In this document: piece by piece, positions 1-63,483 of the stretch
Layout: the number at the start of each line of letters is the position of its first letter
Numbering within the stretch: the first letter of the stretch is position 1
Virus record (IMG/VR): IMGVR_UViG_3300037882_004127
Location: 1-64,000 of that record
DNA: 64,000 nucleotides
Strand: one strand, 5' to 3'
From: a virus
Notes under the pieces: generated by a model
Told to the model about the DNA's origin: nothing
The model's database searches: none
Seen by the model: only the letters and a program-made list of their open reading frames with translations
Translations under genes and position numbers: made by a program

Positions 1-480
1 ATCGTTAACGATAACCAAGTAGATACGATTTGCATTGAGGATTTGAATATTCAAGGGATAATGAAAAATCATAAATTAGCTCGCGCAATGTCAGACGTTG
101 CAATTGGGCGGTTTTATGAAATTTTAAAATACAAGTGTGAATGGAAGGGGGTTAATCTGATTAAAATTGGCCGTTTTGAGGCGAGTTCAAAAACTTGCTC
201 CGTGGACGGTTATGTCAATCATGGTTTGACCCTCAAAGATCGCAATTGGGTTTGCCCAGTTTGTCAAACGAATCATGATCGCGACTTAAATGCCGCGATC
301 AATATCAAAAAATTTGGTTTACTTGGGTTGAAAAACTCAGATAAACCAAAACTACCGATGGAATGTCGGAAAGTTAAGCCTGTGGACCGGAGCGTTAGTT
401 CCGGGGTGAAGCAGGAAGCCCCTTCGCTTGTCGATGAGGTAGTTCACAGTGAATGCGAAATTTCGCCGATAAATCTTTAA
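1..480 (+). CDS. tnpB: TnpB RNA-guided endonuclease (IS200/IS605 type), 5'-partial
   Basis: Frame is open from base 1 (IVNDNQVDTICIEDL, RuvC-II). It continues through SSKTCSVDG...CPVC and DRDLNAAIN (RuvC-III). Confidence 0.93.
   Translation: MVNDNQVDTICIEDLNIQGIMKNHKLARAMSDVAIGRFYEILKYKCEWKGVNLIKIGRFEASSKTCSVDGYVNHGLTLKDRNWVCPVCQTNHDRDLNAAINIKKFGLLGLKNSDKPKLPMECRKVKPVDRSVSSGVKQEAPSLVDEVVHSECEISPINL
340..467 (+). ncRNA. TnpB omegaRNA / IS right end (RE ends at 447; predicted guide 448-467)
   Basis: GAAGCCCCTTCGCTTGTCGATGAGGTAGTTCAC resembles an RE hairpin. Upstream GTGGAC can pair with the terminal GTTCAC as a pseudoknot. The 5' boundary is approximate. Confidence 0.7.
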
Positions 481-20627: not shown

Positions 20628-22247
20628 TTAATTCAGTAATAATTGATTCTCCCCAATCCTAAACGAGTGATTAAAGAATTTTTGCGCAATTTCGGGGCTA
20701 ATGTCAACTTCTTTCGCGGCTTCTTCCTCGGAACCTAACCATTTCAACAATTTTCCCGTCTGAATATTTAAAGCGTGAATAAAATCTGGATTAAACGAAA
20801 AATGTAAGTTCCTATTATAGAACGCTTTAACCTTGAAAAGAAACTCCTTTTGCCCGTTTTCCCCCTTAAAATGATAATTAACCGCTTCGGACGAATCCCA
20901 TTGATAGGGGCGCGGCTTATCTTCTACTGGAACAAAACCTAAATTATTCGCAATAACGAGCAAATCACCAATAAAATCCGCCGCATGAGGCTCTAAACCA
21001 GTGCTACATGGGGAATAGCCCTTAACCAAACCGCCGCACCTCTCTAAGACCATTCGATGTCCGACCTTTAATTTCACATGGCTGACCTCATTTGATTCAT
21101 CGCGATAATAATTGTAACGGAATTGATTCTCCGAGAAGACCCTTCGATTTGAAGAATAATTCTCAACATTGGCGAACTCAAGTAGTCTTTTATAAACTTC
21201 AACTAATTGACTGTCGAATTTTAGATTGGCGTTCCGTATCACGTACAAAACGACTGCGTAAGCATTATCTGAATTAAAATCAATCCCGCTACTTTTATTT
21301 GTTAGCCCAAGTATCTGATCGCGCGAAGATTTTGTCAAAAGCCTATTAATATTTTTCATGCCGTCGAATAAACGGTTCCAAAATAATTTCTTCTCACTCG
21401 CCAACTTCATCTTTAAACTCGCGATTAAGCCAGCCTTTGTTATCTCGAATTCCTTCAATAAACCATTATCAAGGGAGCAAATGGCGGAATAATTCTTTTG
21501 TAAATCGGACATTCTTTCATTATACAAGAAAACGAGGGCGTCAATGAGGTTGCGACCCGCTACCAATTGCTCATTCTTAATTTTATCCTCCAAAGGATCT
21601 TTTAAAACGGGCTCCGGGTATTTGAAGTTATCATTAAAGAATCGCGCGAATGGATCGTTATCTTCAGAGTATCTTTGCCCCGTCCTGATTAGAAGTAAAT
21701 TCACTTTGGCCCGCGCCTTTCTATCTTCAGACTCCATGAAATCAAAAGATCCTAGAGTTTCTGGATTTAACCCGCGCGCTTTAATTTCAAATTGAATATC
21801 TTTATTGTCGGCCCATCGTTCAGGAATCACCAAATAAAGTAAACAGTTAGGAGGCGATTCTTTAAGGATTTTTATTGTCCATTCAACATACTCGCTAAAG
21901 GGACAATTCGAATAAATAACATCTAACTCTTTGTCAAATAAGTTGATATGCCAGAAGTCACAACCAAGAATGAGGTAGCTAGGGTTTAAATTACTTAAGT
22001 GAGTAGATGATTTCTCAATGGCGTAAATTGAATCGAATATACCTAATTCCGCGAAAGCATCTAAAACTTTTCCTCCACCTGCGCCTATGTCCACAACACT
22101 CTTTAACCTTTTATAATGATCCTCATTTATGGATTTAATTGATTTCGCGGCGCATTCAATAATGGAATTCATCGTTGGGTAATATTCATAATCTTCTAGG
22201 GAATCTTTTAATAGATTTAGTTCTTTATTAAACTTCATGGACTTCAT
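20628..22247 (-). CDS. class I SAM-dependent DNA methyltransferase (DUF4942-like C-terminus)
   Basis: EYYPT, VDIGAGGG, the NPPF-like SNCPFS and LVIPERW. Confidence 0.8.
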   Translation of the reverse strand: MKSMKFNKELNLLKDSLEDYEYYPTMNSIIECAAKSIKSINEDHYKRLKSVVDIGAGGGKVLDAFAELGIFDSIYAIEKSSTHLSNLNPSYLILGCDFWHINLFDKELDVIYSNCPFSEYVEWTIKILKESPPNCLLYLVIPERWADNKDIQFEIKARGLNPETLGSFDFMESEDRKARAKVNLLLIRTGQRYSEDNDPFARFFNDNFKYPEPVLKDPLEDKIKNEQLVAGRNLIDALVFLYNERMSDLQKNYSAICSLDNGLLKEFEITKAGLIASLKMKLASEKKLFWNRLFDGMKNINRLLTKSSRDQILGLTNKSSGIDFNSDNAYAVVLYVIRNANLKFDSQLVEVYKRLLEFANVENYSSNRRVFSENQFRYNYYRDESNEVSHVKLKVGHRMVLERCGGLVKGYSPCSTGLEPHAADFIGDLLVIANNLGFVPVEDKPRPYQWDSSEAVNYHFKGENGQKEFLFKVKAFYNRNLHFSFNPDFIHALNIQTGKLLKWLGSEEEAAKEVDISPEIAQKFFNHSFRIGENQLLLN

Positions 22248-22256
22248 GGAATTGAT

Positions 22257-23591
22257 GAAAAGGAAACTCTCGAATTTATTTGAGAGAGGAGTTTTCGCAT
22301 AAAAGGTTAAAAATTTTCACTGTATGAAATAAAATAGACAAAATTGGTGTATTGAATTATAATCAATAAGCTAACCCGTGCCCAACTTAACCTACAAGGC
22401 AGAATTGCTTTTCCAAAGTCAAGAGGATTTTGGGAAAATTCTTAATGTGTTAAAGGCTGAGCAGCAAGTATTTAACGAAGCGTCCAAAATCCATTATGGA
22501 GACGGTTCAAAACGAAAAAATAGCATTGTTGAGCTTCACGCTGGATTTTATAGCAAATTTAGGTTAGCTCATCCTGAAATTCCATCACAAATTGTTATTC
22601 GTGGGGAACAAGCATGCTTATCGGCTTACCGTTCAATTAAATCCAATAAACACGAAATTCATAAGGCAATAGAGAAGAAGAATTTAAGCATTAGGCTAGA
22701 TAAAAGAATTTATACTTATAAAGAAGACAAAATTAAATTAACCTCGTTAGACAAGCGTGTCACCGTAGATTTTAAGCGCTACCCAAAAATCGAAGAAATG
22801 CTAAAATCTTATGAATTTTGCGATCCACTTCTATTTGAACGAGACGGTAAAATCTGGATAGCTCTTACATTTAAAGTTCCCGCAAAACCAGAATCTATTG
22901 AAAAATTAGCCGTGGGCATAGATTTGGGTGTGAATCGAGTAGTTGCTACCTCTGAGGGTAAAATATTTCAGGATAAAAAATTTAACAAAACAAAAAGAAA
23001 ACTTCGATTTTTAAAGCGCCGACTCCGGTCAAAGGGGACAAAATCGGCAAGACGGCACTTAAAGAAGATCCGCCACAAAGAGGCAAATCGAAATAATAAT
23101 CAATCTCATCTATTAGCGAACACCATTATTAGCTCGACCAGCGCAAATGTTTTGGTTTTGGAAGATCTGACGGGTTTAAAAAATCCCAAGAGTAAGAAAA
23201 AGAAAATGAGTAAGTCTAATAATAATAAAATTGGGCAAGTCCCTTTTGCTAGACTTAGAGAAATTTTGACCTACAAGGCACCCATTTATGGGAAAACGGT
23301 TTTACTTATTGACCCAAAATTCACGAGTCAAATTGACTCAAGAACAGGGTTAAAGGATGGGTTAAGAAAAGGCAGTAGATATTACTGTTCGGACGGAGTG
23401 ATATTGGATGCAGATTTAAATGCGTCAATCAATATCACTAAACGTTCAAAACTCCCCGTTTCACTCGGTAGAAATATCGAGACTTACGGGCAGGCTGTTG
23501 TCACCCAGCCAATTGTATTTAAGTCGTTTAATTCTAAGTAATTAGAATTTTATGCATTACAAACACTCGAATTTATTCGTGGGTAGGTGAC
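22257..23591 (+). mobile_element. non-autonomous IS200/IS605-family element (tnpB only), inserted 3' of TTGAT
   Basis: The LE and RE hairpins share CTCGAATTTATT. Excising 22257-23591 restores an in-frame minus-strand ORF. Confidence 0.85.
22378..23541 (+). CDS. tnpB: TnpB RNA-guided endonuclease
   Basis: The RuvC triad GIDLG, LEDL and DADLNA is intact. Confidence 0.93.
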   Translation: MPNLTYKAELLFQSQEDFGKILNVLKAEQQVFNEASKIHYGDGSKRKNSIVELHAGFYSKFRLAHPEIPSQIVIRGEQACLSAYRSIKSNKHEIHKAIEKKNLSIRLDKRIYTYKEDKIKLTSLDKRVTVDFKRYPKIEEMLKSYEFCDPLLFERDGKIWIALTFKVPAKPESIEKLAVGIDLGVNRVVATSEGKIFQDKKFNKTKRKLRFLKRRLRSKGTKSARRHLKKIRHKEANRNNNQSHLLANTIISSTSANVLVLEDLTGLKNPKSKKKKMSKSNNNKIGQVPFARLREILTYKAPIYGKTVLLIDPKFTSQIDSRTGLKDGLRKGSRYYCSDGVILDADLNASINITKRSKLPVSLGRNIETYGQAVVTQPIVFKSFNSK

Positions 23592-23611
23592 CGAGCTATA
23601 CCATTCGTGGT
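23440..23611 (+). ncRNA. TnpB omegaRNA (predicted guide 23592-23611)
   Basis: Stem GGCTG/CAGCC; its loop GTCACC pairs with the terminal GGTGAC. The 5' boundary is approximate. Confidence 0.75.
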
Positions 23612-23657
23612 CTTCTGATAAATCTTGAAGTTTCTTTAAAGTGGATAGATAGGCCAT
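23592..23657 (-). pseudogene. IS-interrupted duplicate N-terminus of the 20628-22247 methyltransferase
   Basis: MAYLSTLKKLQDLSEDHEWYSS resembles ELNLLKDSLEDYEYYPT. Confidence 0.7.
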
Positions 23658-23687
23658 TTATTTAATTTAACAAAACAAAAGTAAACA

Positions 23688-41488: not shown

Positions 41489-41662
41489 TTATCCTTGCGA
41501 ACAGCTAAACCAAACATCGCGCGCCGCATCTTCTGGGTTGTTGGGCCAATTGTCAAAGCGGCTGTCGGATTCCTCTGCAATTTCCACGCGCGTATCTTCG
41601 TCCCAATAACCGCGTCTTTCGCAAAAATCAACAAATTCCTTATTCCATTGTTCGCGGGTCAC
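41489..41662 (-). CDS. hypothetical protein (57 aa, absent from the ORF track)
   Basis: GTG start after AAGGAG; MTREQWNKEFVDFCERRGYWDED... Confidence 0.55.
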   Translation of the reverse strand: MTREQWNKEFVDFCERRGYWDEDTRVEIAEESDSRFDNWPNNPEDAARDVWFSCSQG

Positions 41663-41810
41663 TTAAATGGTCTCCTTTAGGTTTAGGAAATATTCTCGCA
41701 TAGCTTTCCACTCAGGATTCCTGTAGCCCGGCTCAACCCAAATTTTGCAAAAAAGTTCACACGGCGATATAAAGTTCATGAAATTAGTGTATTCATTGTT
41801 ACAAAACAAA

Positions 41811-42956
41811 ATGTCAGTCTTAACCTACAATGTCGAATTGATTCCGAAGAGTCAAGAAGATTTCTTAAAAATTGAGAAAATTCTTGATGCGAATCGCTTT
41901 GCGTGGAATAAAATATCTAAGGTTTATTACGGGCTAGGGAAAAACACGGATAGAAAAGATTTGCATAAACAAACTTATTTCCCAATCCGTAGAGAAAAAC
42001 CAGAAATTCCCGCACAAGTTATCATTCGTGCTCAAAATGACGTAAGGGCGGCATATAAATCAGTAGTTAGCAATAAGCACAAAATTGTTAAACCGATAGA
42101 AAAGAAGAAATTAAGCATGAGGCTGGATAAAAGGCTTTATAGGCTTAAGGAGGGCTTAATATTTCTGACCACTTTAGAAAAAAGATGTGAATTTACATTT
42201 AAAACATTTGAAAAATTTAACGAACTAAAAGCGAAATATGTTTTCGGCGACCCTTTAATTTTTATCCGTGGCGGGAAACTTTATGCGGCGATTTCATTTA
42301 AGATTCCAGAAATTCCAGTTAGTAGCACCCCATTGGCAGTTGGAATTGACCTAGGAATAAAAAATATCGCTGCAACATCCGATGGGAAAATCTATACAGA
42401 TAAAAAATATTTGAAAGAAAAACGGCAACTTAGATTTCTGAAAAGAAAATTAAGAGCACGCAAAACAAAATCCGCTCGAAAACATCTAAAGAAAATTCGG
42501 CGAAAAGAGGCTAATCGCACCAAGAATTTTGCTCATCATTTGGCTAACAAAATTTTAGATACAGAAGCAAATGTTATCGTTTTAGAAAAATTAAAAGGGA
42601 TTAAACAGAAAATCTCTAAAAAACGAGGAAAAGCGTTTAATAATAAATTTTCGCAAATACCAATTGCGATGTTAGCGACGATCATATCATATAAGGCACC
42701 CTTAAAGGGGAAAACGGTTCGTTTCGTGAATCCACAAAATACCAGTCAAATTGACCACAGAACGGGTCAAAAAGACGGAGTCCGCAAGGGTAATATCTAT
42801 CTCGGAAAAGATGGAATTTTACTTCATGCGGATATCAATGCTGCAATAAATATTGCAAAACGTTCTGAACTCCCAATACTAAGCGGAAACGCAAGTTATT
42901 GGCAAGCCGTTGTCAACCGGCTAATCGTTGGAAATAGTTTAAGCCGAAAGGTTTAA
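41811..42956 (+). CDS. tnpB: TnpB RNA-guided endonuclease
   Basis: GIDLG, LEKL and HADINA. The start MSVLTY aligns with MPNLTY of the 22378 TnpB. Confidence 0.93.
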   Translation: MSVLTYNVELIPKSQEDFLKIEKILDANRFAWNKISKVYYGLGKNTDRKDLHKQTYFPIRREKPEIPAQVIIRAQNDVRAAYKSVVSNKHKIVKPIEKKKLSMRLDKRLYRLKEGLIFLTTLEKRCEFTFKTFEKFNELKAKYVFGDPLIFIRGGKLYAAISFKIPEIPVSSTPLAVGIDLGIKNIAATSDGKIYTDKKYLKEKRQLRFLKRKLRARKTKSARKHLKKIRRKEANRTKNFAHHLANKILDTEANVIVLEKLKGIKQKISKKRGKAFNNKFSQIPIAMLATIISYKAPLKGKTVRFVNPQNTSQIDHRTGQKDGVRKGNIYLGKDGILLHADINAAINIAKRSELPILSGNASYWQAVVNRLIVGNSLSRKV

Positions 42957-43025
42957 ATTAATTCGTTTTCGACAAGCCTCTATCGCTTGCGATGAGGTAG
43001 TTGACGCAAATTTTTAATCAATTCT
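42860..43025 (+). ncRNA. TnpB omegaRNA (RE ends at 43005; predicted guide 43006-43025)
   Basis: Stem AGCCG/CGGCT; its loop GTCAAC pairs with the terminal GTTGAC. The 5' boundary is approximate. Confidence 0.75.
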
Positions 43026-62247: not shown

Positions 62248-63483
62248 TCATTTTGACTTTTTGTTGGACTTCTGCTTCATCAAGGAACTAATCGGATTCG
62301 CAAGCGAATCTAATGAACTTCCCTCTCCACAGACTTTAATTCCCGCAGAACTTGCGGTATTTTTGTTATGCATATCGTTTAGATAATAGTTTTTCAGGTT
62401 AATAGCGACGTTGAGATCGCGGTCGGTAGTTGTATTATCGTCATGTATAGTCGTTCTGTCCGCCAAAGTCAAGGAATTATTTATTTTTCCTGATTTGTGG
62501 TCCAGTTTTGAACTGGGATAGAAGCGATTCGCGATAATCACTGTCCGACCATACCATTTTGCCTTATATTCAATCATTCGACGAAACGCATAAAATGACG
62601 CATCGCCAATAGACTGAGCTAATTTATGATTTTTCATCATATTAGAAACAGATAAATCCTCTAAAACAATAACTTGGTTATCGTTTACTATTTTAGTGGT
62701 TGCTTTGTGTATGGCGTCTTTTCTAATATTTGAAATTCTATAATGTAATTTTGCTAATTTTTTCTTTGCTTTCTCTCTGTTTTTAGAACCTTTCTTCTTT
62801 TTGGATAATTGTCTTTGTTTGCGTTTTAGTTTCTTTAAGTTCTTTTTTAATGCCTTGGGATTTTCAAAAATTGTTCCGTCTGAGCAGGTGGCCAGAACCT
62901 TAATTCCCAAATCTATACCGACCGCTTCATTTGCGGGTGTGGGTGCGACCTTTACCACATCTTCAATCAGGCACGAGACAAACCACTTTCCCGCCCTACT
63001 ACTAACTGTTACCGATTTAATCTCAGCATCTAGCGGAATATAATCTGATTCTTTCAATTTTACTTCGCCAATTCTAGGCAATTTAATATGGTTTCTATCT
63101 GAGATGTAAATTGAACCATCTAATTTGAATGATTGTTTTTCGTTTTTCTTAGATTTGAACTTCGGAAAACCCTTTTTACCTTTAACTTTTTTCTTGCAAC
63201 GGGCGAAAAAGTTCTTAAATGCAATATCACAATTTATCAGGGCTGATTGCGGAGCAGATTTACTTGAATTATACATCCAACCAAGTTCGGATTGCTTTAA
63301 CTTATTCAACTCTCTATGTAACTCTATTGCATTTGGGATTTTCTCTTTTTTCTCAAACGCCTCCTTCTTCTTCGCTAACGCCCAATTATAAGCAAATCTC
63401 GCACAACCAGCATGTTGCGATAATAAAGTTCGTTGCTTATTATTAACGTCTAATTCTATTTTATAAGCACGAAGAAAGTTCAT
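62248..63483 (-). CDS. tnpB: TnpB RNA-guided endonuclease (IS607-like)
   Basis: HAGCARFAYNW, GIDLG, LEDL and DRDLN; the right end resembles GTAAGTTTGGAAGAACGG (~62212). Confidence 0.93.
   Translation of the reverse strand: MNFLRAYKIELDVNNKQRTLLSQHAGCARFAYNWALAKKKEAFEKKEKIPNAIELHRELNKLKQSELGWMYNSSKSAPQSALINCDIAFKNFFARCKKKVKGKKGFPKFKSKKNEKQSFKLDGSIYISDRNHIKLPRIGEVKLKESDYIPLDAEIKSVTVSSRAGKWFVSCLIEDVVKVAPTPANEAVGIDLGIKVLATCSDGTIFENPKALKKNLKKLKRKQRQLSKKKKGSKNREKAKKKLAKLHYRISNIRKDAIHKATTKIVNDNQVIVLEDLSVSNMMKNHKLAQSIGDASFYAFRRMIEYKAKWYGRTVIIANRFYPSSKLDHKSGKINNSLTLADRTTIHDDNTTTDRDLNVAINLKNYYLNDMHNKNTASSAGIKVCGEGSSLDSLANPISSLMKQKSNKKSK

Follow-up and report, generated by a model that had tools for sequence, protein, structure and literature searches.

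The 64 000-nucleotide stretch of DNA analysed here (the window; positions 1 to 64 000 of IMG/VR virus record IMGVR_UViG_3300037882_004127) carries, next to an intact methyltransferase-like gene, a tnpB gene encoding a predicted RNA-guided nuclease. On the evidence of its sequence, this gene is the cargo of a non-autonomous IS200/IS605 TnpB element belonging to a phage-adapted clade, and the element very probably extends from 22248 to 23591 with TTCAT as its transposon-adjacent motif (TAM). The explanation that we favour as a whole, and which we consider probable, is that of an ordinary, probably functional, start-docked tnpB element lying beside the relic of a replaced allele. It is supported directly by the anatomy of the element, by its TAM as determined by comparison, by the identity of the relic, by the conservation of the guide RNA (omegaRNA) and by the intact catalytic residues of the nuclease. 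The features concerned are as follows.

20628–22247, minus strand: DUF4942/class I S-adenosylmethionine (SAM)-methyltransferase-like gene, intact; from the list of open reading frames (ORFs), Pfam DUF4942 and homologue motifs.
22243–22247, plus strand: TTCAT, the inferred TAM, whose reverse complement ATGAA is the first ATG of the methyltransferase ORF; from the relatives' motif, spacing and covariation.
22248–23591, plus strand: non-autonomous IS200/IS605-type element, tnpB only, 1344 bp; from comparison with relatives and the lack of a Y1 TnpA in the record.
22252–22256, plus strand: TTGAT, taken as the TAM in a preliminary description of this DNA and most likely inside the left end; from comparison with relatives.
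22263–22286, plus strand: left-end guide tetranucleotide GAAA (22263–22266), then a hairpin with an 8-bp stem (22267–22286); from the fold and covariation.
22378–23541, plus strand: tnpB, 387 amino acids, with Pfam OrfB_IS605 and Cas12f1-like_TNB domains and RuvC residues D182, E262 and D346.
23412–23591, plus strand: omegaRNA scaffold region; from pairing conservation and covariation.
23592–23611, plus strand: flank of up to 20 nt that supplies the guide, CGAGCTATACCATTCG; from its position immediately beyond the conserved right end.
23592–23657, minus strand: 22-codon relic of a methyltransferase N-terminus, with its ATG at 23657 and the family ED-x-EWY motif; from an N-terminal hidden Markov model (HMM).

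In order to fix the ends of the element, we compared it with 40 loci in IMG/VR encoding TnpB proteins 39–72% identical to that of the window; many of these lie in contigs of 150–370 kb, and several contigs hold more than one copy. The closest TnpB proteins (P0122–P0131) show 75–80% identity. In 39 IMG/VR loci and in a second copy in the window, G(T/G)TGAC closes the sequence after tnpB and the flanks are unrelated immediately beyond it, which bears out the right boundary at base 23591 (...GGTAGGTGAC) given in the preliminary description. That description had also placed the left boundary at 22257, so that the element would start with GAAAAGGAAAC after TTGAT, a motif adopted from ISDra2, and would lie within a duplicate of the methyltransferase start. 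The comparison places it after TTCAT at 22243–22247 instead, with the element starting GGAATTGATG at 22248. All 24 loci with a recognisable left end follow a single plan of NTCAY, 13–15 nt, GGA(A/G/T)(A/G)N and a hairpin, in which NTCAY stands 18–20 nt before the hairpin foot and TTGAT is never found at that place. The motif is TTCAT in the subclade that holds the window's element, with TTCAC, GTCAT and CTCAC elsewhere, and the C at position 3 is invariant. TTCAT at 22243–22247 is 14 nt from GGAAAC and 19 nt from the hairpin foot, as in the relatives; for TTGAT these distances would be 5 and 10 nt.

The same choice follows from the guide tetranucleotide. Among the 24 relatives, the last base of the motif and base 4 of the left-end tetranucleotide covary without exception (motifs ending in T go with GAAA or GAGA, those ending in C with GAAG or GATG), which is the pairing rule known from IS608. 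As the window has GAAA, TCAT is predicted rather than TGAT, and for a G at TAM position 2 the guide would have to start with C. The maximum-likelihood tree makes the window's TnpB sister to that of locus L006 (72% amino acid identity, support 100/99), whose motif is TTCAT, and nests the two in a clade whose members all have NTCAY. Experiments have shown that the TAM is the motif next to the native left end, and that TAMs differ among elements (TTTAT, TTCAT) (Meers 2023, 10.1101/2023.03.14.532601). If the boundary at 22257 were right, the clade TAM would lie on the resident methyltransferase allele and not on the empty site. Folding of the left end gives the 8-bp stem, the right-end stem is short, and neither beats shuffled sequences (z −0.9 and −0.3, respectively).

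No Y1 TnpA gene was found in the 77.9-kb record of which the window is part (36% complete by CheckV), and the element is therefore classed as non-autonomous. Y1 TnpA adjoins related tnpB genes in two of five jumbo-phage records, so autonomous IS605-type elements of the clade do live in phage genomes; the two genes (L075, G004:110898-111263, and L076, G005:321910-322194) lie about 1 kb from a related tnpB in complete jumbo-phage records of 354 and 369 kb.

The nuclease itself matches Pfam OrfB_IS605 and Cas12f1-like_TNB (E = 1e-14 and 1.2e-7, respectively). Its RuvC residues D182, E262 and D346 are invariant in 15 clade members, and the triad aligns with the DLG, EDL and D-x-D-x-NA motifs of a solved TnpB-like nuclease. 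The best match in the PDB, with E = 1e-10, is a nuclease designed by artificial intelligence, and the solved TnpB and Cas12f proteins are only remotely related. The RuvC triad is kept throughout a clade-wide exchange in the TNB domain (residues 317–340, window 23326–23397), where the CxxC...CxxC pattern has become a conserved D-x-R-T-G...C-x-D-G.

The omegaRNA, taken as the 180 nt before the right end, has a conserved structure of 34 pairs in which 95.3% of the cells are paired, compared with 27–41% in slid controls, and 20 of the 34 pairs show double-sided changes. It includes a pseudoknot between the loop GTCACC (23500–23505) and the terminal GGTGAC (23586–23591); the terminal hexamer pairs with the internal loop in all 14 sequences (100% paired), and the window copy alone has GGTGAC/GTCACC where the others have GTTGAC/GTCAAC, a compensatory change from A-U to C-G. 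A search of the element against Rfam gave no family match for the omegaRNA. It gave no group I intron either, and identification of the element as an IStron was rejected. The first 16–20 nt of the right flank would serve as the guide, a length that is borrowed from work on ISDra2 and ISGst. Because the RuvC triad is invariant and the omegaRNA is conserved with covariation, the system of TnpB and omegaRNA is probably functional, with RNA-guided cleavage as its predicted activity.

One further feature precedes tnpB.

22335–22363, plus strand: promoter-like TAGACA-17-TATAAT 5′ of tnpB, including GTGTAT at 22347; from a consensus scan only.

The promoter consensus scan performed at chance level, with seven sites seen and 7.2 expected. 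The motif GTGTAT(A/T) precedes both tnpB genes by 20–30 nt and occurs at further sites as well (22347, 41787, 44785, 50862, 5141 and 60490 on the plus strand, and 18452 on the minus strand); in all, the window has 10 on the plus strand and three on the minus. It looks like a shared promoter element, because it also precedes tnpB in related phages.

The window has a G+C content of 38% and the majority of its genes on the minus strand. The protein encoded by the gene on the left of the element has 539 amino acids from the first ATG, or 536 from the second, at 22238. By its GxGxG motif, its motif IV and its DUF4942 C-terminal domain (Pfam E = 4.7e-6, above the cut-off), it fits the DUF4942/class I SAM-dependent methyltransferase family, of putative N6-adenine type, and the earlier statement that the resident gene is intact holds. 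The GxGxG and N-x-P-aromatic motifs are carried by 375 homologues. The SAM motif reads DIGAGGGK, its family counterpart being DIGAGNGK, and motif IV (residues 111–114, window about 21900) reads NCPF, with NPPY-type sequences in 23 aligned homologues, among which the N and the last P are invariant. The closest proteins are P0002 and P0003, and some family members start with MKSF.... Searching IMG/VR with the single protein gave no match, and searching with the family alignment gave 24 loci, the best at 49% identity, none of which shares synteny with the window. No second methyltransferase copy was found in the 77.9-kb record, nor any homologue in five phage records with a related TnpB.

The TAM at 22243–22247 is the mirror image of ATGAA, and the element consequently sits on the start of the intact gene and not inside a duplicate of it. 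This arrangement recurs in the clade: among independent insertions with a T/GTCAT-type motif, 13 of 16 have that motif at the ATG of a minus-strand ORF 60 or more amino acids long, against a background in which 26% of the ATGAA sites on that strand of the window are such starts (rough binomial probability 6e-6). The simplest reading of this docking is a combination of the target motif with selection against gene-breaking insertions, by which the surviving insertions would sit backwards on start codons, in the present case the first ATG of the methyltransferase gene. Reading of ribosomes across the element was considered and rejected for the window copy, in which the methyltransferase frame closes after 23 codons of the element and is open no further than 22316.

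The flank on the other side of the element, from which the guide would be read, contains a second methyltransferase start. We built the N-terminal HMM over 30 positions from 112 homologues, leaving out the window's own protein, and ran it against 2521 six-frame peptides of the window; the intact gene matched with E = 2e-8 and the relic came second with E = 4.9e-7, the next match having E > 1. The two diverged, tandem N-termini of the preliminary description are thus real. As it stands, the relic ORF runs into the right end of the element and stops at 23553. None of 119 homologues has two such motifs in one protein, and the tandem arrangement is therefore not a normal protein architecture. Its claim that the guide derives from a disrupted duplicate of the neighbouring gene survives in part, as the guide flank is indeed a second, diverged methyltransferase start; by local alignment score, however, the resident allele ranks only 81st of 120 in likeness to the relic, with 80 other members closer, and the relic is therefore no recent copy of the start of the neighbouring gene. 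The DNA of the two N-termini is identical at 15 of 25 aligned nt. The 22-codon fragment is best described, from these comparisons, as a relic of another allele of the methyltransferase family. No N-terminal relic was found at other insertions of the clade, where the best Smith–Waterman score is at most 34, compared with 41 here, and such a relic is therefore not a family trait of the clade.

We then considered the site that would exist without the element, and the corresponding site in the intact gene.

22168–22192, plus strand: intact-gene site homologous to the guide target, TTCAT (22168–22172) plus 20 nt; from alignment to the guide.

Removal of 22257–23591 gives the single minus-strand frame reported earlier, and the arithmetic of that statement is right; excision of 22248–23591 keeps the frame too, giving the relic, MKS and then MKFNKE.... 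With the boundary at 22248, the empty site reads GGACTTCAT followed by CGAGC..., and aligns with the intact copy, GGAATTCAT followed by CGTTG..., as well as does the empty site proposed previously, so that the reported likeness to the intact gene is genuine (GGAATTGAT against GGAATTCAT, 8/9) but does not single out the earlier boundary. The guide matches the intact-gene site at only 5/12, 8/16 and 10/20 positions, in agreement with the seed mismatch noted before. The intact copy had, in addition, been described as protected by an altered TAM. Its TTCAT at 22168–22172 is in fact the clade TAM, and immunity by that means is refuted, the clade using a TAM other than TTGAT; to judge from the alignment, the intact gene escapes only through its mismatch to the guide. 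In any carrier, as with every TnpB element, the insertion itself keeps TAM and target apart, and no special resistant allele is therefore needed. The codon that would supply the TAM encodes Thr, not Met, in 108 of 114 members of the methyltransferase family, and Met at that codon is otherwise unique, among 114 homologues, to the resident allele.

The search for the empty-site allele that had been suggested was carried out in IMG/VR and found none. Other searches for relatives of the locus were likewise negative: GenBank phages gave no DNA match and only remote matches to TnpB (< 35%); a TnpB alignment scan of metagenome contigs confirmed no relative; the left-end DNA pattern matched, in metagenome contigs, only an unrelated right end and, in IMG/VR, only locus L028 itself and a solo hairpin.

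Putting these observations together, we propose that a tnpB-only IS200/IS605 element of a clade living in large phages would have docked at 22248–23591 on the first ATG of the resident gene, the resident allele having taken the place of most of an older methyltransferase allele by illegitimate or unequal recombination that left the 22-codon relic. The particular sequence of events in which 22 (or 25) codons from the start of the old gene were left before the new one, and the insertion then took place at the ATGAA of the new gene, is our tentative choice, at somewhat less than an even chance. The only DNA that TnpB would cut with its guide is that of element-less siblings of the phage, where TTCAT lies directly against the relic, and repair from the carrier genome would copy the element in (homing) or restore it after excision; the resident gene would be no target, with five of 12 seed bases matching and with the element, in a carrier, between TAM and target. 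Cutting of vacant sites by TnpB has been demonstrated (Meers 2023, 10.1101/2023.03.14.532601). Homing into element-less copies of the window locus, between co-infecting phages, would be generic TnpB behaviour (Meers 2023) and is plausible.

Several observations weigh against parts of this proposal. The shift of the left boundary by 9 nt rests on the DNA of relatives that are at most 72% identical, rather than on a second copy of the same element, and of the two likenesses to the intact copy, that of GGAATTGAT to GGAATTCAT (8/9) being one, one must be due to chance. The junction also contains repeated DNA.

22233–22250, plus strand: tandem 9-nt repeat, two units of CTTCATGGA, with both candidate starts (ATG at 22238 and 22247, minus strand); from reading of the sequence.
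22251–22259, plus strand: third, degenerate 9-nt unit, ATTGATGAA, after the two CTTCATGGA units.

These three units (22233–22259) straddle the left boundary and read INS-MKS-MKF on the minus strand; they may have arisen by slippage, as a repair scar or by chance. At the right end, the guide tetranucleotide is CAAA (23563–23566), where the relatives have CAAG, and it misfits the terminal TGAC (23588–23591) by the IS608 rule. The window copy may for this reason be a poor substrate for the transposase and may no longer be excised by TnpA, though its omegaRNA is intact. The zinc-finger cysteines of the TNB domain are replaced in the window's TnpB, and clade-wide, by D..T / C..D. The empty site of the element, searched for as TT(C/G)AT plus 16 nt of guide, has no match in IMG/VR, where the empty-site pattern of the L025 group, used as a control, is also absent. 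The contig is a metagenome assembly across a repeat and, finally, the order of relic first and insertion second is one that we infer.

The other order is the basis of the alternative that deserves most attention, although we regard it as unlikely. The element may have split the older allele (allele-1) at an internal Met-Lys (ATGAA) about 23 codons in, after which the part on the TAM side was swapped for the resident allele (allele 2) by recombination at or beside the element, with two element copies as portable homology or by repair of a TnpB-made break. The combination of element and allele 2 could then home into allele-1 phages and replace their gene, which would amount to RNA-guided marker exclusion. 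Directly left of the element, ATGAAGTCC (MKS) matches the internal ATGAATTCC (MNS) of the intact copy at 8/9 in the homologous place, and the restriction of Met at that position to the resident gene hints that the parent of the relic had Met too. MKS may equally be the native start of the resident gene, given the family members that begin MKSF.... Loci L006 and L007 are 99.7% identical in the element and its right flank, with unrelated flanks on the TAM side, which would make a second case of a swapped TAM-side gene; the L006 flank, however, is just 444 nt at a contig end and may be an assembly join. In detail, the two phage contigs are 99.7% identical over L006:445-5771 and L007:3839-9167, including 3.9 kb of guide-side flank, and their sequences become unrelated 4 nt to the left of the TAM. 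On the TAM side, each contig has the start of a gene with ATGAA, and the L006 flank is absent from the 92%-complete L007 record. The difference reflects either an exchange of flanks at the element or a join made in assembly at the end of a contig. Gene-breaking insertions are, moreover, the exception in the clade, and no allele-1 gene with TAM and target was found by the IMG/VR pattern search or among 114 family members. The stronger claim, that the relic is the footprint of RNA-guided allele replacement in which the element split allele-1 and now homes, with the resident allele, into allele-1 phages, is less likely again. If it were true, TnpB would cut the rival gene start and repair would co-convert the whole resident methyltransferase, an RNA-guided counterpart of T-even marker exclusion of which the L006/L007 flank swap would be a further instance; such exclusion needs a rival allele with ATGAA at that codon, given that 108 of 114 family members have Thr there.

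The remaining explanations have lower probabilities. The model of the preliminary description, in which an element at 22257–23591 with the TAM TTGAT sits in a tandem duplicate, TTCAT and seed changes shield the intact copy and TnpB attacks a rival allele, draws on the in-frame excision of 22257–23591, which aligns INS with MNS and GGAATTGAT with GGAATTCAT, and on the TTGAT TAM of ISDra2 TnpB (Karvelis 2021, PMC8612924). The invariant C of NTCAY, the GAAA tetranucleotide, the 10-nt hairpin spacing, the remoteness of the window's TnpB from the solved TnpB and Cas12f proteins and the likeness of the relic to other alleles combine to make it very unlikely. More doubtful still is an assembly chimera, in which the 1.3-kb repeat would have led to the left flank of one element copy being joined to the right flank belonging to a different copy or strain. 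The record has four or more tnpB-like genes, short reads do not reach the length of the element and L006/L007 show a comparable flank switch at a contig end. The other tnpB copies in the record, at about 64% DNA identity or less, are nevertheless too diverged to mislead an assembler, and it would take a striking coincidence for a false join to set a methyltransferase N-terminus across from a methyltransferase gene with both orientation and frame matching. We give equally little credence to an old tandem duplication, within the lineage, of the first 25 or so codons, followed by divergence and later insertion of the element between the copies. It would explain why both N-termini are in frame and adjacent in the reconstructed empty site, but 80 other family members resemble the relic better than the resident N-terminus does, the DNA of the two being identical at 15 of 25 aligned nt, and none of the 119 homologues has such a duplication.

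In its overall plan, the window's element resembles the IS1341-group or OMEGA elements, such as ISDra2 and the Geobacillus ISGst elements (PMC8612924, 10.1101/2023.03.14.532601), in having a TnpB with a RuvC D-E-D triad, an omegaRNA that overlaps the 3′ end of tnpB and the right end, a guide taken from the adjoining DNA, guide tetranucleotides with candidate subterminal hairpins, a motif of 5 nt on the 5′ side of the left end and the vacant site as its predicted target, and in making no duplication of the target site. The motif of ISGst5 is also TTCAT, though the nuclease of ISGst5 is IscB. Unlike these examples, the window's element resides in a phage, lacks the TNB zinc-finger cysteines together with the rest of its clade, docks on a start codon, has no transposase in the 77.9-kb record and has, as its guide-side flank, a relic of the family of the adjoining gene.

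A second parallel is with the free-standing homing endonucleases of T-even phages (SegF, SegG and MobE), which are responsible for intronless homing and localized marker exclusion. There, too, a nuclease gene lies between phage genes, the predicted target exists only in genomes without the nuclease, and flanking markers could be co-converted. The window's TnpB differs in being RNA-guided and in that self is told apart by an insertion rather than by substitutions in a conserved gene, and no cleavable rival allele was found for it. TnpB-driven spread of IS elements has been described among plasmid copies (bioRxiv 10.1101/2025.02.20.638934), and ‘transposon non-restorative homing’ appears in a review (PMC13565253), in which it is listed as theoretical for phages. 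The likeness to the plasmid case lies in TnpA-independent copying into homologous DNA that has no element, which is shown for plasmids and only proposed for co-infecting phages.

The window contains one more element of this clade.

41658–43005: second, diverged same-clade element, with tnpB at about 41811–42956 and 53% amino acid identity to the first copy.

Its right end (...GTAGTTGAC) stops at 43005, and its left-end hairpin has decayed. Its motif, GTCAC (41658–41662), is the GTG start of a 57-amino acid minus-strand ORF, and the left end holds AAGGAG, which on the minus strand precedes that GTG by 8 nt. Two more genes with a TNB domain (tnpB-like) lie at window 1–306 and 62395–62595 (G000:C1), bringing the number in the 77.9-kb record to four. 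The one at the contig start is of another type and keeps some zinc-finger cysteines; GAGGTAGTTCAC downstream of it looks like a right-end terminus.

The TTCAT obtained here by comparison indicates that TAMs are not transferable from ISDra2 to other TnpB clades. In this phage-adapted clade the motif mirrors a common start, ATGAA, and copies can park on start codons without breaking genes. The guide-side relic provides a modest but tangible trace of gene replacement beside a TnpB element, and its importance would grow only with the finding of a cleavable rival allele. With several copies per jumbo phage and an intact nuclease and guide RNA, the clade offers a reasonable natural system for RNA-guided homing between phages, which has so far only been proposed in the literature.

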